Shown in pieces: positions 1-6,148 of a stretch of 6,148 nt of DNA. Numbering within the stretch: position 1 is the stretch's first letter; each line of letters begins with the position of its first letter. A program made the translations under genes and the position numbers. Origin of the DNA: a virus (Duplodnaviria; Heunggongvirae; Uroviricota; Caudoviricetes); the IMG/VR virus record IMGVR_UViG_2675903606_000015; one strand, 5' to 3'. The notes beneath the pieces are model-generated. The model saw only the letters and a program-made list of their open reading frames with translations. It was not told the DNA's origin and made no database searches.

Positions 1-79
1 CGACGGTCGCCGGTTCGGTGACGCTTAATTCATTAAACACCACTCTGGCGGTTTCGGTCATATCCTGCTGTTTTAGCAT
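1..79 (-). CDS. Partial ORF (first 26 codons, runs off the left edge); hypothetical first gene downstream of the Q terminator
   Basis: Minus-strand ATG at 79..77 (second in-frame ATG at 61..59) is open to position 1: MLKQQDMTETARVVFNELSVTEPATV. It lies ~120 bp downstream of the tR'-like hairpin. Absent from the ORF track only because it is short. No family recognised. Confidence 0.3.
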   Translation of the reverse strand, partial: MLKQQDMTETARVVFNELSVTEPATV

Positions 80-202
80 GCCTTTTTCCCTTTTCCGGTT
101 AACGTGACACACCAATAACTCTTGTCGAAAAAGCCAGCAAGCTGAAAGAACGGTATTAATAACCACCAGCGAATTTATTGCGCTGCTGTATATTACGGAC
201 AC

Positions 203-223
203 AAAAAAACCACCTTCCGGTGG
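203..223 (-). terminator. Rho-independent terminator downstream of Q (tR'-like position)
   Basis: On the minus strand, CCACC-GGAA-GGTGG hairpin (plus 210-223) followed directly by a T7 run (plus 203-209). The plus-strand version lacks a U-tract, so it is unidirectional. About 100 nt downstream of the Q stop. Confidence 0.5.
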
Positions 224-320
224 CTTCCTTGTGCGAAAAAACTTGCATTTCGCCTCGCGATACAGCTTTGCGAAGCTTACAGGAATTCAAGCTGTTTCTG
301 CGTAAAAAAGCAAGCTTTTT

Positions 321-863
321 TTATCGAAATGAATCGTGCATAGGTACATAAAGCATGTGTTCAGCCACGGCTAACCAACCTGCAATACGTTTCTCACATG
401 TGCTGAAACACCATTCCGGGTGAGTACGATTTAAACATTCTGCCATTTTTCTCTTACTCATTCCCCGTCCTTCGTACCTTTGCCGGAGAATATTGATTAG
501 CCCGGGATATTCCCCAAGCACCTCACTGATAACGCGATCAATAATCAACGCCTCTGTGTCTGTACAATGTGACAACCAGCTCTTCTGCTTCCCTCTGGTC
601 ATATCCCGAAAAAATGCCTCAAGTTCCGGTTTTTCCAGCCCGGATTTCTTCATGCTGCGTAAAACCTCATTAACTGCTGTTTTCGTCAGCCTTTTCGAAA
701 CCAGTAACCGGTTAAACATATTTCCGGATTTACCCCCACCGATATACGACCACCGCCCCCACATCCGTAATTTCCCCTGGATCCAGACTGCTTCCAGCGT
801 GTTCAGGCGTAAATGTTCGCCGCTTTTGCCTGTAATTTCCGGATATATCATATTTACGCTCAC
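321..863 (-). CDS. Late-gene antiterminator Q-like protein (phage 82/QuuD-like family suspected), 180 aa
   Basis: Intact 180-aa ORF. GTG start at 863 overlaps the rusA stop (GTGA); alternative ATG at 851. Position immediately downstream of rusA and upstream of a terminator is canonical for Q. WG-W motif near the N-terminus and a C-terminal Cys cluster. Family assignment from memory only. Confidence 0.6.
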   Translation of the reverse strand: MSVNMIYPEITGKSGEHLRLNTLEAVWIQGKLRMWGRWSYIGGGKSGNMFNRLLVSKRLTKTAVNEVLRSMKKSGLEKPELEAFFRDMTRGKQKSWLSHCTDTEALIIDRVISEVLGEYPGLINILRQRYEGRGMSKRKMAECLNRTHPEWCFSTCEKRIAGWLAVAEHMLYVPMHDSFR

Positions 864-1219
864 TCACTCTCAATTTTGTAAATCTTCACACCCAGCCGTC
901 CACCAGATACTGGCTGACCACGTACAATATTGATTTCATCAAACTGCTCGTCATCAATGAGCACTCCCGCATGCGTCAGCGCATCCAGCGGTGCTTTCAG
1001 AATATTGTCCAGGTCACGACGACGCTTATCCGGTGGCTCTGCAATAATTTTTATTGCCAGCCGTCCGGACAGGCTTAATTTCAGTCGCTGCTGGCGAACA
1101 ATAAGCGCCACTGCCCGGCGATAACGCTCCCCGGCTTTTGATACAAAATATGTGCTGCCACGGCGTCGCCAGTAGGTGTTCACCGTCGGCGGGTAAGGTA
1201 AAACCAAATCTATGAGCAT
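860..1219 (-). CDS. rusA: RusA-family crossover junction endodeoxyribonuclease (Holliday junction resolvase), copy 1
   Basis: 119-aa ORF with LPYPPTVNTYWRRR and PDKRRRDLDNILKAPLDALTHAGVLIDDEQF motifs that align to E. coli RusA. Strong SD (AAGAGGTGA) 3 nt upstream of ATG at 1219. Confidence 0.85.
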   Translation of the reverse strand: MLIDLVLPYPPTVNTYWRRRGSTYFVSKAGERYRRAVALIVRQQRLKLSLSGRLAIKIIAEPPDKRRRDLDNILKAPLDALTHAGVLIDDEQFDEINIVRGQPVSGGRLGVKIYKIESE

Positions 1220-1231
1220 CAGTCACCTCTT

Positions 1232-2121
1232 TTACCCGAGCACGCCAGTCGCAAAGGCGTGATCAAGAAAACGAAAAATTAACTCAATCTGAGAGCCGTA
1301 CTTTTTCTCAAACTCCAGCGGGTCTGCATGAAGTTCGTTGTGGTGCTCCCGGCACAACGGTAACGTGAAAATATCGTGGGCCTTTGTCCCCATTCCCCCC
1401 TGACCATGACCAATCAGGTGATGCGGATCGTCAGCAGGCTTACCACAACACGCACACGGCTGTGTCTTTACCCAGCGCGTGTATTTCTCGTTAACCCAGC
1501 GGCGACGTTTAGGTCGTTTCATGAAAGATTCCGGAGACTCAGGATCAACGGCAATGCTGACCACCGTCTTTTCCTGTGGTGGGTTCTGTTGCTGGTGGGC
1601 GTGAGGCAGCGGCGCAAGATTTTTTGTGCGCTGTTTCAGTATGCTGGTGGCGGTCTGCTCTCCCGGCACGATGTCGCTTTCACGGTACATTGAGCGGATT
1701 TTTTCCGCACGCAACCCCAGCGAACGACGTAATACCGCTTCCGGTAGCGCGTCCGCCACCTGATTGCGGACCGCCCACCAGGATAATTCAGCCAGAGATA
1801 ATTCACGCTCCTGCGTACCGCTTATTGCGTGACCGATGACGTCAATCATCCAGGCTGTCAGATTTTGTTGAGCAAGCTGCCCGAGTGATTCGGATGTCTG
1901 GTCGCGCAGCTGGTTGTCGCAGTGCCAGCACAACACCATTGCGCCGGTACCATAACGGTGAATGACGGTTTCGCTGTGATGATAATCGCCGTGTGGCCAC
2001 TGGCAGGATTTAATATGGCGCAACAGCCAGTCAGACAATGCACCAGCACCACCAGCAGCACGAATCACCCGTGCGTTACTGAAAAACGGCAGCAATGTTT
2101 TGTCTTCCACTAGCGGCTGGA
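1232..2121 (-). pseudogene. DUF968 (YdfU-like) gene, 5'-truncated copy lacking about the first 53 codons
   Basis: Matches the C-terminal ~296 codons of the full copy at 2630..3679. Homology ends abruptly at 2121, where sequence switches to Q-internal sequence. The track ORF 1232..2137 uses a fortuitous GTG inside the Q fragment with no convincing SD. Stop TAA at 1234..1232. Confidence 0.6.
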
Positions 2122-2261
2122 CCGGATTTACCCCCACCGATATACGACCACCGCCCCCACATCCGTAATTTCCCCTGGATCCAGACTGCTTCCAGCGTGT
2201 TCAGGCGTAAATGTTCGCCGCTTTTGCCTGTAATTTCCGGATATATCATATTTACGCTCAC
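2122..2261 (-). pseudogene. Q-like antiterminator 5' fragment (first 47 codons only)
   Basis: Identical to 724..863. Reading frame runs past the junction at 2121 into out-of-frame DUF968 sequence and stops at 2076 (track ORF 2076..2261, 61 aa). Confidence 0.7.
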
Positions 2262-2617
2262 TCACTCTCAATTTTGTAAATCTTCACACCCAGCCGTCCA
2301 CCAGATACTGGCTGACCACGTACAATATTGATTTCATCAAACTGCTCGTCATCAATGAGCACTCCCGCATGCGTCAGCGCATCCAGCGGTGCTTTCAGAA
2401 TATTGTCCAGGTCACGACGACGCTTATCCGGTGGCTCTGCAATAATTTTTATTGCCAGCCGTCCGGACAGGCTTAATTTCAGTCGCTGCTGGCGAACAAT
2501 AAGCGCCACTGCCCGGCGATAACGCTCCCCGGCTTTTGATACAAAATATGTGCTGCCACGGCGTCGCCAGTAAGTGTTCACCGTCGGCGGGTAAGGTAAA
2601 ACCAAATCTATGAGCAT
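2258..2617 (-). CDS. rusA: RusA-family Holliday junction resolvase, copy 2 (intact)
   Basis: Protein identical to copy 1. One synonymous nucleotide difference (2573 A vs 1175 G). Same SD. Confidence 0.85.
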   Translation of the reverse strand: MLIDLVLPYPPTVNTYWRRRGSTYFVSKAGERYRRAVALIVRQQRLKLSLSGRLAIKIIAEPPDKRRRDLDNILKAPLDALTHAGVLIDDEQFDEINIVRGQPVSGGRLGVKIYKIESE

Positions 2618-2629
2618 CAGTCACCTCTT

Positions 2630-3679
2630 TTACCCGAGCACGCCAGTCGCAAAGGCGTGATCAAGAAAACGAAAAATTAACTCAATCTGAGAGCCGTACT
2701 TTTTCTCAAACTCCAGCGGGTCTGCATGAAGTTCGTTGTGGTGCTCCCGGCACAACGGTAACGTGAAAATATCGTGGGCCTTTGTCCCCATTCCCCCCTG
2801 ACCATGACCAATCAGGTGATGCGGATCGTCAGCAGGCTTACCACAACACGCACACGGCTGTGTCTTTACCCAGCGCGTGTATTTCTCATTTACCCAGCGG
2901 CGACGTTTAGGTCGTTTCATGAAGGATTCCGGAGACTCCGGATCAACGGCAATGCTGACCACCGTCTTTTCCTGTGGTGGGTTCTGTTGCTGGTGGGTGT
3001 GAGACGGTAGCGCAATATTTTTTGTGCGCTGCTTCAGTATGCTGGTGGCGGTCTGTTCTCCCGGTATGATGTCGCTTTCACGGTATACGGAGCGGATTTT
3101 TTCCGCTGGTAATCCCAGCGAACGACGCGCTACTGCCTCAGGTAGTGCATCCACCACCTGATTGCAGGCCGCCCACCAGGATAATTCGGCCAGCGATAAC
3201 TCCCTCTCCTGCGTACCGCTTATTGCGTGACGGATGACATCAATCATCCAAGCAACCAGATTCTGCTGAGCAAGTTGATCGAGTGATTCTGATGTCTGGT
3301 CGCGCAGCTGGTTGTCACAGTGCCAGCACAACACCATTGCGCCGGTACCATAACGGTGAATGACGGTTTCGCTGTGATGATAATCGCCGTGTGGCCACTG
3401 GCAGGATTTAATATGGCGCAACAGCCAGTCAGACAATGCACCAGCACCACCAGCAGCACGAATCACCCGTGCGTTACTGAAAAACGGCAGCAATGTTTTG
3501 TCTTCCACTAGCGGCTGGCGAACGGCAGGAACAACCCCGGACGGCAGATTACGCATGCTTTTCGGTTCCGGCTCCACCAGTACCCGGGTATTGTGGAATA
3601 CCGGCATGGATTCACGGCCCGGCTTAACGATCACCAGCCCGAGTTCCGGTACCAGAACAGGTCGAAGTAATACCCGCAC
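2630..3679 (-). CDS. DUF968 (YdfU-like) protein, full length 349 aa, with C-terminal Cys/His-rich HNH-like zinc-finger motif
   Basis: GTG start at 3679 preceded by GGAGGT SD. C-terminus CACCGKPADDPHHLIGHGQ...LCREHHNELH. Length matches E. coli YdfU (349 aa, from memory). This is the only copy with both N- and C-terminal parts. Confidence 0.7.
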   Translation of the reverse strand: MRVLLRPVLVPELGLVIVKPGRESMPVFHNTRVLVEPEPKSMRNLPSGVVPAVRQPLVEDKTLLPFFSNARVIRAAGGAGALSDWLLRHIKSCQWPHGDYHHSETVIHRYGTGAMVLCWHCDNQLRDQTSESLDQLAQQNLVAWMIDVIRHAISGTQERELSLAELSWWAACNQVVDALPEAVARRSLGLPAEKIRSVYRESDIIPGEQTATSILKQRTKNIALPSHTHQQQNPPQEKTVVSIAVDPESPESFMKRPKRRRWVNEKYTRWVKTQPCACCGKPADDPHHLIGHGQGGMGTKAHDIFTLPLCREHHNELHADPLEFEKKYGSQIELIFRFLDHAFATGVLG

Positions 3680-3680
3680 G

Positions 3681-3892
3681 TTACCTCCAGATGCGTTGCT
3701 GGAATGTGCGGGACGGACGCGGCGGGCGTTCGGAATAAAGGAGCCTGACGTAGATTATCCAGTGACGGTAGTCGAGGCTAAGGGCTTTCTTAAACTCATA
3801 CCCACGTCTGCGGTAGTTATGAATCAGCCATTCGGCCTGTTCTTCAGTGCAGGGATCGTGCTGATACCAGTCATATTTGAATGTGTGAGAAA
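3681..3892 (-). pseudogene. 3' fragment (about 70 C-terminal codons) of the 108-aa hypothetical gene
   Basis: Identical to 4697..4908. Loses homology at the 3892|3893 junction. No start codon of its own. Contains the SD for the downstream DUF968 copy. Confidence 0.6.
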
Positions 3893-4695
3893 GTGTATTT
3901 CTCGTTAACCCAGCGGCGACGTTTAGGTCGTTTCATGAAAGATTCCGGAGACTCAGGATCAACGGCAATGCTGACCACCGTCTTTTCCTGTGGTGGGTTC
4001 TGTTGCTGGTGGGCGTGAGGCAGCGGCGCAAGATTTTTTGTGCGCTGTTTCAGTATGCTGGTGGCGGTCTGCTCTCCCGGCACGATGTCGCTTTCACGGT
4101 ACATTGAGCGGATTTTTTCCGCACGCAACCCCAGCGAACGACGTAATACCGCTTCCGGTAGCGCGTCCGCCACCTGATTGCGGACCGCCCACCAGGATAA
4201 TTCAGCCAGAGATAATTCACGCTCCTGCGTACCGCTTATTGCGTGACCGATGACGTCAATCATCCAGGCTGTCAGATTTTGTTGAGCAAGCTGCCCGAGT
4301 GATTCGGATGTCTGGTCGCGCAGCTGGTTGTCGCAGTGCCAGCACAACACCATTGCGCCGGTACCATAACGGTGAATGACGGTTTCGCTGTGATGATAAT
4401 CGCCGTGTGGCCACTGGCAGGATTTAATATGGCGCAACAGCCAGTCAGACAATGCACCAGCACCACCAGCAGCACGAATCACCCGTGCGTTACTGAAAAA
4501 CGGCAGCAATGTTTTGTCTTCCACTAGCGGCTGGCGAACGGCAGGAACAACCCCGGACGGCAGATTACGCATGCTTTTCGGTTCCGGCTCCACCAGTACC
4601 CGGGTATTGTGGAATACCGGCATGGATTCACGGCCCGGCTTAACGATCACCAGCCCAAGTTCCGGTACCAGAACAGGTCGAAGTAATACCCGCAC
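3893..4695 (-). pseudogene. DUF968 (YdfU-like) gene, 3'-truncated copy (N-terminal 268 codons, lacks the Cys/His domain)
   Basis: GTG start at 4695 with GGAGGT SD. Identical to the copy-1 allele over the shared region. After codon ~268 the frame enters the out-of-frame 108-aa gene fragment and stops at 3871 (track ORF 3871..4695, 274 aa ending FSHIQI). Confidence 0.6.
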
Positions 4696-4696
4696 G

Positions 4697-5023
4697 TTAC
4701 CTCCAGATGCGTTGCTGGAATGTGCGGGACGGACGCGGCGGGCGTTCGGAATAAAGGAGCCTGACGTAGATTATCCAGTGACGGTAGTCGAGGCTAAGGG
4801 CTTTCTTAAACTCATACCCACGTCTGCGGTAGTTATGAATCAGCCATTCGGCCTGTTCTTCAGTGCAGGGATCGTGCTGATACCAGTCATATTTGAATGT
4901 GTGAGAATACCGCCCTTGCCTGCTGGCAGGGGCGATATCAGAATTGTGATGTTTGGTATTGTGCGCCATCGGTTTTCTCTGCTGGCGCAGCAGGTGCCAG
5001 TTGTTCAAGCTGGCGTGCGGCAA
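4697..5023 (-). CDS. Hypothetical phage protein (108 aa from TTG at 5023; about 90 aa if started at ATG 4969), translationally coupled to DUF968
   Basis: Its TAA stop (4699..4697) is one base from the GTG start of DUF968, and the DUF968 SD lies in its last codons. Protein is basic and Trp/Tyr-rich (KYDWYQHDPCTEEQAEWLIHNYRRRGYEF). No family recognised. Confidence 0.45.
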   Translation of the reverse strand: MPHASLNNWHLLRQQRKPMAHNTKHHNSDIAPASRQGRYSHTFKYDWYQHDPCTEEQAEWLIHNYRRRGYEFKKALSLDYRHWIIYVRLLYSERPPRPSRTFQQRIWR

Positions 5024-5038
5024 TATTGTCTCTGATTT

Positions 5039-5069
5039 CTGTTGTCGTCAACAGGCAACGTGCTATCAT
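5039..5069 (+). promoter_or_regulatory. Candidate parDE promoter with overlapping palindromic operator
   Basis: Perfect inverted repeat CTGTTG-N4-CAACAG at 5039-5054 overlaps a -35-like TTGTCG (5042-5047). 16-bp spacer, then -10-like TATCAT (5064-5069), about 35 bp upstream of the parD ATG. On the other strand the same palindrome contains TTGACG, a possible -35 for the divergent phage operon. Confidence 0.3.
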
Positions 5070-5104
5070 CGAATGGTGTTCTATCCTACTCCGTGAGGTT
5101 TACC

Positions 5105-5362
5105 ATGCGTACAACCCAACAATTCAGCATTACATTAACTAACGAAATGGCTGACATGGTGCGCGCCCGTGTGGCTTCCGGTGCCTATGCTTCAGAAAGC
5201 GAGGTCATTCGTGAAGGGCTTCGCGCACTGAATGAGCGCGATAAAGCAATCGAAGCGTGGTTAACGCATTCAGCCGCCCCCTCTCTTGATTCTATCCGCG
5301 AAAACCCAAACAACGGACGCTCCATTTCACAGGTTCGCGCCGCGATTCGATCCGGGAAGTAA
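5105..5362 (+). CDS. parD: ParD-type (COG3609-like, ribbon-helix-helix) type II antitoxin, 85 aa
   Basis: ATG at 5105 with GAGG 8 nt upstream; the track ORF start at 5042 would lie inside the promoter/operator. Sequence VRARVASGAYASESEVIREGLRALNERDKAIEAWL matches the conserved ParD/CopG-like core. Stop is 5 nt before the toxin ATG. Confidence 0.7.
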   Translation: MRTTQQFSITLTNEMADMVRARVASGAYASESEVIREGLRALNERDKAIEAWLTHSAAPSLDSIRENPNNGRSISQVRAAIRSGK

Positions 5363-5367
5363 TCTGC

Positions 5368-5667
5368 ATGACATATGAAGTCATCATTACTCCTGAGGCC
5401 GAACAACAAATAATCAACCTGCACAGGTATATAACGGAGAAAGCAGGGAACGTCATTGCTGACAATTATGCCAATGCGCTTCTTGATTATCTTGATGGGT
5501 TTTCTACATTCCCGCATCGGGGCAATAAACGCGATGATATTCGCCAGGGGATGCGGGTAACTCATTTCCGCCACAGAACGATTATTGCTTTTGCCGTTGA
5601 TAGCAGAAAAGTCTTTATTGTCGGTATCTATCATGGTGGGCAAAGTTATGAAACCGATTTCTTATAA
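5368..5667 (+). CDS. parE: ParE/RelE-superfamily type II toxin, 99 aa
   Basis: Small basic protein directly downstream of the RHH antitoxin. C-terminal FPHRGNKRDDIRQGMRVTHFRHRTIIAFAVDSRKVFIVGIYHGGQSY resembles the ParE fold signature. Classic antitoxin-then-toxin operon order. Confidence 0.7.
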   Translation: MTYEVIITPEAEQQIINLHRYITEKAGNVIADNYANALLDYLDGFSTFPHRGNKRDDIRQGMRVTHFRHRTIIAFAVDSRKVFIVGIYHGGQSYETDFL

Positions 5668-5740
5668 ACTTTTACCCACATCATTCCGGTGTTAGAATTA
5701 ACCGTCCGCCCCCCTCTCTTACTGGCGGATTCGTAGGCTA

Positions 5741-5775
5741 TATAAATCAAAGATCCCGGCTCATGTTTATGTCGG
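5741..5775 (+). terminator. Intrinsic terminator after parE, possibly bidirectional
   Basis: Stem AGATCCCGGC (5741-5750) / GTCGGGATCT (5761-5770) with a 10-nt loop, followed by T6 (5770-5775). On the minus strand the same hairpin is followed by TTGATTTATATA, so it may also end the converging minus-strand ORFs. Confidence 0.6.
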
Positions 5776-5792
5776 GATCTTTTTTCGGCGAT

Positions 5793-5876
5793 TTATCCCC
5801 AGCGGCAAATCGAATACACCACCAGCGCCACCGCCATCGCAATTCCTACCGTTGTGAATGCTTCAGGCCAGGTCAT
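5793..5876 (-). CDS. 27-codon hydrophobic small ORF (predicted single-pass membrane peptide)
   Basis: MTWPEAFTTVGIAMAVALVVYSICRWG. Its ATG (5876..5874) overlaps the TGA stop of the upstream ORF (5875..5873) as ATGA. Ends with TAA at 5795..5793, just before the terminator. Not in the ORF track because it is short. Confidence 0.4.
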   Translation of the reverse strand: MTWPEAFTTVGIAMAVALVVYSICRWG

Positions 5877-6148
5877 CGTAAAATATCCTCCACGCTTATC
5901 AGTCCGTTCCGCTCCAGATAACTCATCGCCTTATCCGGTAATTTGCAGTCTGGCTTCGCTTTCCTCAGTTGCCAGGTTAACTGCTTTACCAGCATGGTTA
6001 ACTCATCGACCAGACGCTGATATCCCACTGGTTTGTATTCATGCAATTTACCGGCTGGCTCTGCTGCCAGCGATACCAGTGCGATTTCCAGAACAGCAAT
6101 ATCCATCTTATATGTGCGGATGATGTCATGGTCGATTGTGCCCGGTAT
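5873..6148 (-). CDS. Partial ORF of unknown function (C-terminal 91 codons; N-terminus beyond the right edge)
   Basis: Minus-strand frame is open from 6148 with no stop; the track shows only the part from the internal Met at 6106. Protein-like composition (…YLERNGLISVEDILR), whereas the antisense ORF 5854..6123 is Pro/Ser/Leu-rich and shadow-like. Confidence 0.45.
   Translation of the reverse strand: MPGTIDHDIIRTYKMDIAVLEIALVSLAAEPAGKLHEYKPVGYQRLVDELTMLVKQLTWQLRKAKPDCKLPDKAMSYLERNGLISVEDILR

Follow-up and report, generated by a model that had tools for sequence, protein, structure and literature searches.

Among solved structures, Caulobacter ParD1/ParE1 (3KXE, TIGR02606 'antidote_CC2985') and Mesorhizobium ParD3/ParE3 (5CEG, 6X0A) are the best sequence and fold matches to the toxin-antitoxin pair found in our window, the whole 6,148-nt stretch of viral DNA that was analyzed. 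Both systems share the two-gene architecture of this pair. However, they are chromosomal while the module described here is phage-borne, and their ParD proteins differ in the N-terminal DNA-reading strand (here MRTTQQFSITL). The PaaR2-PaaA2-ParE2 system of E. coli O157:H7 comprises three components: its regulator PaaR2 is a protein of its own, and its antitoxin PaaA2 is short and does not bind DNA, whereas the antitoxin encoded here itself has a ribbon-helix-helix domain. Common to both is a lambdoid-prophage toxin of the ParE fold (5CW7, 5CZF; TM 0.77–0.78). Vibrio cholerae ParD2/ParE2 (7R5A, 7B22) is as well a bicistronic pair of a ribbon-helix-helix ParD and a ParE toxin, and its ParD N-terminus and ParE fold match those of our module. 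Nevertheless, it is distant (ParD E about 2.5e-3, ParE 17% identity) and resides in a superintegron instead of a prophage. The ParDE2 operator lies over the -10 element and the transcription start, with a footprint from -21 to +13 (PMC10776004). A conserved motif of our locus occupies the same relative place, although it is a single 21-bp TAGGATT/AATCCTA palindrome while the V. cholerae operator consists of three GGTA/GTAY boxes.

Further resemblances concern the surroundings of the module. The slot immediately upstream of a rem-like ORF, DUF968 and rusA is occupied by hokD in other E. coli prophages and by relBE-hokD in Qin of K-12, where these genes adjoin rem-ydfU-quuQ. A stabilizing or selfish role is presumed for them as it is for parDE. 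In contrast, their toxins belong to other families than ParE, Hok being a type I membrane toxin and RelE an mRNase, and hokD is co-oriented with the phage operon while parDE is antisense to it. Finally, the isrK-orf45-anrP unit of Gifsy-1 (PMC4825925) and the c4-icd-ant unit of P1 immI resemble our locus in that a minus-strand, promoter-like site of the window shares its ancestry with the isrK promoter. This promoter drives isrK, C4 RNA and an antirepressor in relatives, where it stands back-to-back with parDE, whereas the window keeps only a putative promoter remnant in which the -10 element and the TCCGGGGC block are mutated.

We consider it likely that positions 5039–5785 form a self-contained type II ParD/ParE moron with a proximal operator, and that the conserved part of the palindrome distal to parD is the -35 element of a decayed isrK promoter. 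This accessory unit, predicted to be equipped with a promoter, an operator and a terminator of its own, sits within the early-right (nin) operon of a lambdoid E. coli prophage, in antisense orientation. Its two plus-strand genes, recognized from the ORF list and by family models, are parD (5105–5362, ATG at 5105, stop at 5360–5362), encoding an 85-aa ribbon-helix-helix antitoxin, and parE (5368–5667, stop codon included), encoding a 99-aa ParE-type toxin. With only 5 nt between the parD stop and the parE start, they are bicistronic.

The initial annotation had called these proteins a ParD-type antitoxin and a ParE-type toxin, and protein searches with both ORFs confirm the assignment to the ParD and ParE families: family cut-offs are passed, solved structures match, and PHROG and RefSeq agree. 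ParD matches PF03693 (E=1.6e-7, 32.1 bits, cutoff 21), TIGR02606 (53.8 bits, cutoff 46.2) and PHROG 6494 'antitoxin' (E=1.7e-56), and is listed in RefSeq as WP_001260977.1 'ParD family antitoxin'. Its N-terminal 50 residues are matched by the solved ParD antitoxins 3KXE, 7YCV, 7B22 and 8C24. The N-terminal strand MR[ST]TQQFS[IV]TL is near-invariant across related ParD proteins, and the subfamily comprises more than 2600 proteins at E≤1e-5; a search of the PDB and the literature found no solved or experimentally studied member with the MRTTQQFSITL strand. ParE covers the full-length PF05016 model (1–89; E=4.5e-10, 40.4 bits, cutoff 23) and is assigned to PHROG 5232 'toxin'. Single-sequence phmmer of ParE against the PDB gave nothing at E≤0.01, and the comparison was redone with a 20-sequence profile. 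Five of the six profile matches were ParE-type toxins with ParD-type antitoxins (6X0A at 1.3e-7, 5CEG, 8C24, 6XRW, 7YCS), while the weakest was a chain labelled RelE/StbE (E=0.029). A Foldseek search of the PDB employed an AF2 model of ParE built from the single sequence with moderate confidence (pLDDT 71). Its top 21 matches were all ParE-type toxins (TM 0.69–0.78); RelE, YoeB and YafQ ranked lower, with the mRNases at TM 0.4–0.68. Judged by the profile matches and this model, the toxin is nearer to ParE, a gyrase poison, than to the mRNases RelE, YoeB, HigB or YafQ.

Thus parDE, as already named in RefSeq and PHROGs, is an ordinary toxin-antitoxin pair and no new system type. The module is 99.8% identical in E. 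coli O26:H11 11368, where it is annotated as ParD/ParE; of the 5426 complete E. coli genomes compared, about 325 carry it. Stx2a phages have an orphan ParD that is 86% identical, for which an anti-addiction role is conceivable. The cassette was further found at other prophage positions in ArgO145, Yersinia, Salmonella, Erwinia, Cronobacter and Enterobacter; it is mobile between differing prophage positions. A literature search for ArgO145 together with toxin-antitoxin found no paper. On a wider scale, 74 of 79 related loci have a ParE homologue downstream of parD, and ParD, ParE and the 21-bp palindrome are co-conserved across phyla.

Based on a consensus scan and on conservation, parDE would be transcribed from an extended -10 promoter, TGcTATCAT, at 5061–5069 on the plus strand. 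The pattern TGyTAnnnT is kept in 12 enteric relatives, in which the degenerate positions vary (TATCAT, TATTAT, TAAAAT, TATTTT, TATGTT). The consensus scan placed a -35-like hexamer, TTGTCG (5042–5047, plus strand), 16 nt from this -10 element. In the relatives the -35 spacing differs by 3–4 nt, with TCGTCA at 17 nt. We infer that TTGTCG is a weak -35 element, which is less needed given the extended -10. Transcription would begin near 5076, and parD is preceded by the Shine-Dalgarno sequence TGAGG (5094–5098, plus strand; read from the sequence), of which GAGG is kept in enteric relatives. Transcription would end at a bidirectional terminator-like hairpin at 5749–5785, AAAGATCCCGGC...GTCGGGATCTTT, with a T-run on the plus strand and TTTGATTT on the minus strand. 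It folds with -19.7 kcal/mol (z=-4.5 on the plus and z=-4.3 on the minus strand), and none of 200 shuffles folds as well. A consensus terminator scan of 4850–6148 found no terminator; it missed this hairpin because the loop exceeds 8 nt.

The proximal operator was predicted from the comparison of related parD loci. About 90 of them, from several phyla, carry the 21-bp family palindrome GAGTAGGATTnAATCCTACTC (also written GTAGGATTnAATCCTAC) of the TAGGATT/AATCCTA type directly before the ribosome-binding site, and in nearly all of them its 17-nt core begins 31–51 nt before the parD ATG. In the window, the core (5073–5089) begins 32 nt before the ATG. The predicted operator, GAATGGTGTTCTATCCTACTC at 5071–5091, is a degenerate copy that agrees with the consensus at 11 of the 17 core positions: its right half is that of the consensus, while the left half corresponds to the recurrent TAGTGTT/TGGTGTT variant. 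With a PWM derived from 76 distant loci, 5071–5091 is the top site in the whole window (15.0 and 13.8 bits), and the scan found no second significant copy of the motif there. Shuffle maxima had a 95th percentile of 11.6 bits, but the highest reached 18.1 and thus exceeds the 15.0 bits of the window, so that the significance of the site stems from its position and homology. In 65 loci the left half, TAGGAT or TATGAT, stands at a distance of exactly 17 nt behind a TTGACA-like hexamer, and it appears to double as the -10 element there. We take 5071–5091 to be the ParD operator. ParD dimers, with ParE as co-repressor, would bind this pseudo-palindrome, and since it covers the transcription start, ParD-ParE binding would shut off the module's own promoter. 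A full-text literature search with four sequence variants of the operator found no paper containing the motif, and the 21-bp palindrome may represent an operator, so far undescribed, that serves a very large ParD subfamily.

On the other side of the parDE promoter, a minus-strand promoter-like site was assigned by homology to the isrK/C4-antirepressor promoters. It spans 5022–5051 and was found in the consensus scan as TTGACG (5051–5046), an 18-nt spacer and AATATT (5027–5022). What 28 distinct isrK promoters have in common is TTGAC-N17/18-TATA(T/G)T, with a consensus -10 of TATATT or TATAGT that is preceded by TCCGGGGC. The window retains the -35 element and the 18-nt spacing, whereas its -10 reads AATATT and the adjacent block TCAGAGAC instead of TCCGGGGC. 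This degradation suggests that the isrK-type promoter is probably unselected here. In six related loci (L002, L004, L084, L090, L096, L098) the homologous sequence leads into Rfam isrK, C4 and c4-a1b1, behind which comes an antirepressor gene, and in L096 the isrK 5' end lies 7 nt after the -10. By homology, the minus-strand site thus appears to be the descendant of a real, conserved promoter and not a random match. The sequence GGGGTTCGAATCCCG, found left of parD in relatives, was also considered as a tRNA 3' fragment or att remnant; this was ruled out, since Rfam identifies it as part of isrK/C4. Downstream of the promoter remnant in the window, neither isrK nor C4, a1b1 targets or an antirepressor was found, and an Rfam search of 4900–6148 (E up to 1) returned no RNA family, which excludes isrK, C4 and sok-type RNA from that region. 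The DNA downstream is the leader of the rem-like ORF, common to Qin-like prophages. Most of 2871 matching records without the cassette match this leader (4970–5019), which is common to thousands of prophages lacking parDE, and a mosaic joint lies at about 5020–5022. Ancestrally, the isrK/C4-antirepressor promoter would have stood back-to-back with parDE. Recombination at about 5020 would then have swapped the isrK unit for rem-like/DUF968/rusA/Q, leaving a decayed promoter remnant behind.

The initial annotation had proposed a different operator. It read the inverted repeat CTGTTG-TCGT-CAACAG at 5039–5054 as an operator shared by divergent promoters, and in the model that follows from this reading ParD/ParE would repress both parDE and rem-like/DUF968/rusA/Q through overlapping divergent -35 elements. 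The repeat is present and perfect, and from the positions of TTGTCG on the plus strand (16 nt before the TG-extended TATCAT, 5064–5069) and TTGACG on the minus strand it follows that it overlaps -35-like hexamers on both strands; the promoter scan yielded three sites, with 2.0 expected. Two perfect 6-nt arms with a centre-to-centre spacing of about 10 bp are what would be expected for ribbon-helix-helix tetramers, and the core TGTCGTCAA is kept in E. coli, Cronobacter, Yersinia, Erwinia, Enterobacter, Izhakiella and one Salmonella lineage. However, in distant loci the same DNA-reading strand of ParD goes along with the other conserved palindrome before the ribosome-binding site and with no CTGTTG/CAACAG, and 5039–5054 has no similarity to that family motif. 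The symmetry is perfect only in this lineage and poor in four enteric relatives (L084, L090, L093, L102), while L087 and L100, both Salmonella loci in which parDE is intact, have no such element. Its conserved core, GTCGTCAA (TTGACGAC on the minus strand), which 9 of 11 enteric relatives share, is the -35 of the isrK promoter next to it; other isrK promoters have this -35 but not the symmetry. Nor is the palindrome beyond chance (P about 0.10): a perfect 6+6 repeat with a loop of 0–10 nt arises in 9.7% of dinucleotide shuffles of the 81-nt spacer, a share that rises to 15.7% with 135 nt, while the window holds 29 such repeats, five of them within 191 nt around 5039–5054. The idea that ParD reads the distal palindrome as a variant site, with GTGTT in both, was rejected as well, given that the ParD PWM scores nothing there and distant loci lack the element. 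Thus the overlap with divergent -35 elements stands, but the identification as ParD operator does not, and we regard this model as quite improbable; a second ParD binding site at 5039–5054 is conceivable on sequence alone. For the further suggestion that ParD might cross-regulate the phage operon we found no positive evidence, the predicted ParD site lying about 45–70 bp upstream of the leftward -10 and outside the leftward core promoter. An EMSA on 5039–5054 would probably be negative and could wrongly suggest that ParD lacks autoregulation, while the data point to 5071–5091.

If not ParD, another regulator such as a prophage repressor might use the distal palindrome as operator of the isrK-type leftward promoter and thereby gate Q transcription. 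The P1 immI promoter, which is related to the isrK promoter, is repressor-controlled. Furthermore, the palindrome sits exactly on the -35 and the spacer of the isrK-homologous promoter, and TTGACGACAACAG recurs in the isrK promoters L115 and L135, whose 75 nt of upstream DNA show no parD sequence. Yet the spacer varies freely across the 28 distinct isrK promoters without maintaining the left arm, and the block conserved among them is TCCGGGGC beside the -10 and not the dyad. Together with the loss of selection suggested by the degraded -10 and block in the window, this makes a role for another regulator very improbable. A further scenario starts from the ancestral interlocked pair of -35 elements: the isrK-type remnant would feed Q, and antisense early-right transcription would lower ParD, coupling induction to ParE release. 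We consider this unlikely. If true, the late-gene antiterminator would receive transcripts from a cassette-linked promoter, antisense early-right transcripts crossing parDE would cut ParD synthesis upon induction, and the module would be regulatorily tied to the lysis-lysogeny circuit instead of being a passive addiction cassette. With regard to the proximal motif, one might speculate that 5071–5091 is an RNA element within the 5' leader of parDE, such as a hairpin that controls translation or stability, because the consensus could fold, immediately ahead of the ribosome-binding site, into a stem of 8 bp closed by a loop of 5 nt. However, its conservation is one of sequence, without compensatory changes: about 20 loci, the window among them, have the GA-to-TG change of the left half, and none shows a compensating change in the right half, which favours a DNA site over an RNA hairpin. 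In addition, the left half appears to serve as -10 hexamer in the 65 loci mentioned above, 17 nt from a -35, and would there lie upstream of the transcript. On these grounds the hairpin was rejected, and an RNA element is extremely improbable.

The reading of parDE as a self-contained moron agrees with its position in the prophage. The left neighbour is a rem-like phage ORF of 90 aa on the minus strand (4697–4969; RefSeq ATG start, PHROG 1212), which the initial annotation had read as 108 aa from a TTG at 5023. In O26:H11 RefSeq starts this ORF at ATG 4969, an equivalent start is used for the gene in other prophages, and the PHROG 1212 profile covers only residues 25–90 of the 90-aa form. Consequently, the protein probably comprises 90 aa. 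The intergenic region of 81 bp (5024–5104) given earlier applies to the TTG start, whereas a start at ATG 4969 leads to a gap of 135 bp. parDE is indeed oriented opposite to rem-like/DUF968/rusA/Q, but no operon begins with these genes. The colinear prophage of O26:H11 carries replication O/P, HNH, a 114-aa ORF, the 90-aa ORF, DUF968, rusA and Q all on the minus strand, and parDE lies antisense within one long early-right transcription unit. In the window the left region (DUF968/rusA/Q in 1–4700) appears partly triplicated, and the DUF968 copy adjoining the cassette is truncated. As to the place of the module, the occurrence of hokD in the same slot elsewhere marks it as a recurrent toxin-antitoxin position of lambdoid prophages.

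Once ParD is degraded, free ParE would poison DNA gyrase, which would help the prophage to be retained and may possibly keep other phages out. Neither ParD and ParE nor either neighbour matched PADLOC-DB 2.0 at E up to 0.01, and since this database has no matching model, a defence role for parDE is speculative. For prophage biology, the slot upstream of rem/DUF968/rusA/Q emerges as a recurrent landing site of toxin-antitoxin modules in prophages of Shiga-toxin-producing E. coli. The locus further illustrates how prophage mosaicism makes look-alike 'shared operators', as two unrelated modules were joined at a promoter. Beyond the prophage, the comparative data yield GAGTAGGATTnAATCCTACTC as a consensus, predicted operator for a large and widespread ParD subfamily.

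The gene pair of the window consists of a parD open reading frame (ATG 5105, TAA 5360-5362, plus strand, 85 aa) and, after a gap of 5 nt, a parE open reading frame (ATG 5368, stop 5665-5667, plus strand, 99 aa). To its left, a rem-like phage ORF on the minus strand ends at 4697 and comprises 108 aa from TTG 5023 or 90 aa from ATG 4969. The 85-aa protein exceeds the curated cut-offs of Pfam ParD_antitoxin (32.1 bits, cut-off 21) and NCBIfam TIGR02606 (53.8 bits, cut-off 46.2), and its residues 1-50 can be aligned with the solved ParD antitoxins 3KXE, 7YCV, 7B22 and 8C24. The 99-aa protein covers the full Pfam model ParE_toxin (PF05016) with 40.4 bits (cut-off 23). Since PF05016 takes in RelE-like mRNases too, a profile was built from 20 toxins adjoining ParD homologues. 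Against the PDB it matched mainly ParE-type toxins (6X0A at 1.3e-7, then 5CEG, 8C24, 6XRW and 7YCS), the last match being one RelE/StbE-labelled chain (E=0.029). A single-sequence AlphaFold model of moderate confidence (pLDDT 71) gave ParE-type toxins throughout the top 21 Foldseek matches against the PDB (TM 0.69-0.78), among them E. coli O157 ParE2 and V. cholerae ParE2, while YoeB, RelE and YafQ ranked below. PHROGs assigns the two proteins to moron-class antitoxin and toxin, and RefSeq names them 'ParD family antitoxin' (WP_001260977.1) and 'RelE/ParE family toxin' (WP_000220601.1); PADLOC defence models gave no match to ParD and ParE. Family cut-offs, PDB profile and fold matches, RefSeq and PHROGs thus bear out the ParD-type antitoxin and ParE-type toxin that the initial annotation had correctly spotted, a pair that is ordinary and was annotated before.

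A search with ParD yielded over 2600 relatives (E<=1e-5), in which the N-terminal strand MR[ST]TQQFS[IV]TL, the DNA-reading part of a ribbon-helix-helix protein, is near-invariant among enterobacteria, alpha- and betaproteobacteria and Acidobacteria. When the DNA upstream of parD was taken from 80 genomic loci and 20 enteric loci, GTAGGATTnAATCCTAC was found in nearly all of them, often with arms of 10 bp (GAGTAGGATT/AATCCTACTC) and with a 17-nt core beginning 31-51 nt 5' of the parD ATG; a ParE homologue lies directly downstream of parD in 74 of 79 loci. An operator weight matrix was derived from 76 non-redundant distant sites, leaving out the window and its close relatives. Its best match anywhere in the window is 5071-5091, with 15.0 and 13.8 bits on the two strands (shuffle maxima: 95th percentile 11.6, highest 18.1 and thus above the 15.0 of the window), and the distance to the ATG is identical to that of all enteric relatives. 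The second-best match (GAGTACGATTTAAACATTCTG, 422-442, inside the Q/DUF1133 gene) reaches 9.8 bits and is treated as chance, since this falls below the 95th percentile of the shuffle maxima.

The copy of this proximal motif in the window, GAATGGTGTTCTATCCTACTC, has a consensus right half and a left half of the TGGTGTT/TAGTGTT type, a variant seen repeatedly in unrelated taxa (about 20 loci). In 65 loci the left half reads TAGGAT/TATGAT and serves as a -10, because a TTGACA-like hexamer precedes it by exactly 17 nt. An RNA hairpin was considered and rejected, as the left-half change is uncompensated and the left half is a -10 in those 65 loci. Judged from sequence, a DNA operator that overlaps the promoter is the best reading of the motif. 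Enteric loci conserve, separately from the motif and immediately 5' of it, an extended -10, TGyTAnnnT (TGcTATCAT, 5061-5069, in the window), so that the predicted transcription start near 5076 falls in the operator. The experimentally footprinted operator of V. cholerae ParDE2 extends from -21 to +13 (PMC10776004). A literature search found no paper printing the motif.

The initial annotation had instead proposed a ParD operator shared by divergent promoters at CTGTTGTCGTCAACAG, a perfect 6-N4-6 inverted repeat at 5039-5054. As a description of the sequence this is accurate: an inverted-repeat check and a consensus promoter scan recovered the palindrome and the overlapping -35-like hexamers, which belong to a plus-strand site (TTGTCG 5042-5047, 16 nt, TG-extended TATCAT 5064-5069) and a minus-strand site (TTGACG 5051-5046, 18 nt, AATATT 5027-5022). 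However, these elements carry little statistical weight. When the 81-nt spacer is shuffled by dinucleotides, 9.7% of the shuffles contain one or more perfect 6+6 inverted repeats with a loop of 0-10 nt; the window holds 29 such repeats, and the scan gave 3 sites against 2.0 from shuffles. For the latter reason, a further promoter-like site on the plus strand (TTTACC/16 nt/TG-TAGAAT, 5671-5698), directly 3' of the parE stop and ahead of the terminator-like hairpin described below, is probably chance. Aligning the upstream regions of twelve enteric loci shows conservation of GTCGTCAA(C/T)A but not of the dyad. Symmetry is perfect (6/6) only in the lineage of the window, 5/6 in Stx phage ArgO145, Izhakiella, Cronobacter and one Salmonella lineage (L002, L004, L096 and L098), 4/6 in Enterobacter (L093) and poor in Yersinia (L084, L102) and Erwinia (L090); two Salmonella lineages (L087, L100) lack the element and have parDE intact.

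Read on the minus strand, the conserved palindrome core is TTGACGAC, with TATATT or TATAGT 17-18 nt further on. Downstream of this promoter in relatives, Rfam identifies isrK (RF01394), C4 antisense RNA (RF01695) and a1b1 targets (RF03163), followed by an antirepressor gene, a unit of the Gifsy-1 isrK-anrP / P1 immI type (PMC4825925). The 5' end of isrK in Cronobacter is 7 nt past the -10. This unit stands back-to-back to the left of parD in L002 (4059-4241), L096 (2725-2921), L098, L090, L004 and L084, and the pairing recurs in five genera with interlocked -35 regions. We compared 28 distinct isrK promoters from viral contigs (L105-L143, 75 nt upstream of isrK), most of which carry no parD-type sequence within 75 nt upstream of the promoter. 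They have TTGAC-N17/18-TATA(T/G)T in common and a strikingly conserved TCCGGGGC block immediately 5' of the -10, while their spacers vary freely and maintain no dyad. This block, of which we found no description, may be bound by a regulator or set promoter strength. Because isrK promoters keep TTGAC and not the dyad, the conserved palindrome arm is the -35 hexamer of the neighbouring module.

In the window, similarity to the isrK module stops at about 5020-5022, where the rem-like leader starts; positions 4970-5019 of this leader are common to most of 2871 matching records, which are without parDE. The promoter remnant has a mutated -10 (AATATT) and a TCCGGGGC block degraded to TCAGAGAC, and Rfam detected neither isrK nor C4 RNA in 4900-6148 of the window. 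The isrK-parD junction type is found in 42 complete E. coli genomes, the window type in about 324. With its symmetry not conserved and its conserved arm explained by the -35 of another module, the palindrome is probably not a shared ParD operator; most likely it arose incidentally where two modules met with overlapping -35 regions.

Over the 1452 nt of 4697-6148, identity to E. coli O26:H11 11368, O103:H2 12009 and many further strains that produce Shiga toxin is 99.8%. At least 80% of this stretch is present in 324 of 5426 complete genomes, the parDE stretch alone in 328. In the O26:H11 prophage (cro/cII-like, replication O/P, DUF4014, HNH endonuclease, 114-aa ORF, 90-aa ORF, DUF968, rusA, DUF1133/Q antiterminator) all flanking phage genes run on the other strand from parDE. 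This puts the cassette inside the early-right (nin-region) transcription unit, in antisense orientation, and not at the head of a divergent phage operon as had been suggested. A strong terminator-like hairpin at 5749-5785 (z about -4.5), with a T-run on the plus strand and TTTGATTT on the minus strand, might terminate parDE transcripts and, on the phage strand, serve as a nin-type terminator. Nor is there support for cross-regulation of phage genes by ParD: the predicted ParD site is placed 45-70 bp 5' of the leftward -10, and there is no second significant motif copy.

Immediately 5' of the rem-like ORF, DUF968 and rusA is a slot that holds parDE in the window (5039-5785) and hokD in many other E. 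coli prophages (strain 5264, L104 1668-1823). In the K-12 Qin prophage, relBE-hokD adjoins rem-ydfU-quuQ. This nin-region slot looks like a toxin-antitoxin landing site. In Stx phage ArgO145 the cassette resides in the early-left region, and in Yersinia, Salmonella, Erwinia, Cronobacter and Enterobacter in varied prophage or IS settings; it is a mobile accessory module. A Rac-like Salmonella prophage (L100 2276-4789) has vapBC, parDE, a Fic-domain gene and hok adjacent in a small toxin-antitoxin/toxin-like island. Broken copies occur as well: parE is fragmented in Yersinia (L084 3001-3553), and in Stx2a-converting phages it is cut after 5 codons and replaced, leaving parD as an orphan antitoxin, which in phage Stx2a_JNE122398 (L003 3084-3341) is intact with 86% aa identity and the same promoter and operator. 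Orphan ParD antitoxins of EHEC phages have been mentioned (PMC12502783), and those of Stx2a phages may have an anti-addiction or anti-defence role.

Elsewhere in the window, the DUF968/rusA/Q region within 1-4700 is partly triplicated (1479-1778 / 2877-3176 / 3893-4192 and 724-1023 / 2122-2421), with copies 89-100% identical. It holds three DUF968 copies of 301 aa (N-terminus truncated), 349 aa (full-length) and 274 aa (C-terminus truncated), two rusA copies, one full Q and one 61-aa Q fragment. To span the 6148-nt window, the best complete E. coli genomes among the matches listed use only about 3.73 kb of their own DNA and are thus not colinear with it; either the triplicated region has truly been rearranged, or an assembly artefact has arisen between similar prophages. 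An unannotated 27-aa hydrophobic ORF (MTWPEAFTTVGIAMAVALVVYSICRWG, 5793-5876, minus strand) may encode a small membrane peptide, and its start codon shares bases with the stop codon of the 114-aa phage ORF upstream (ATGA), suggesting translational coupling.

Taken together, the new points are the family-wide operator consensus with its location in the window, and the origin of the minus-strand promoter-like site. The sequence data show the family membership of both proteins, the architecture of the pair, its conserved motif and its mobility. We infer that parDE would be an autonomous, autoregulated type II toxin-antitoxin operon, in which ParD dimers, with ParE as co-repressor, would bind at 5071-5091, blocking the extended -10 promoter of the operon. 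Upon loss of ParD, free ParE would poison gyrase, and prophages would keep the cassette as a selfish moron that stabilises them and may exclude other phages.
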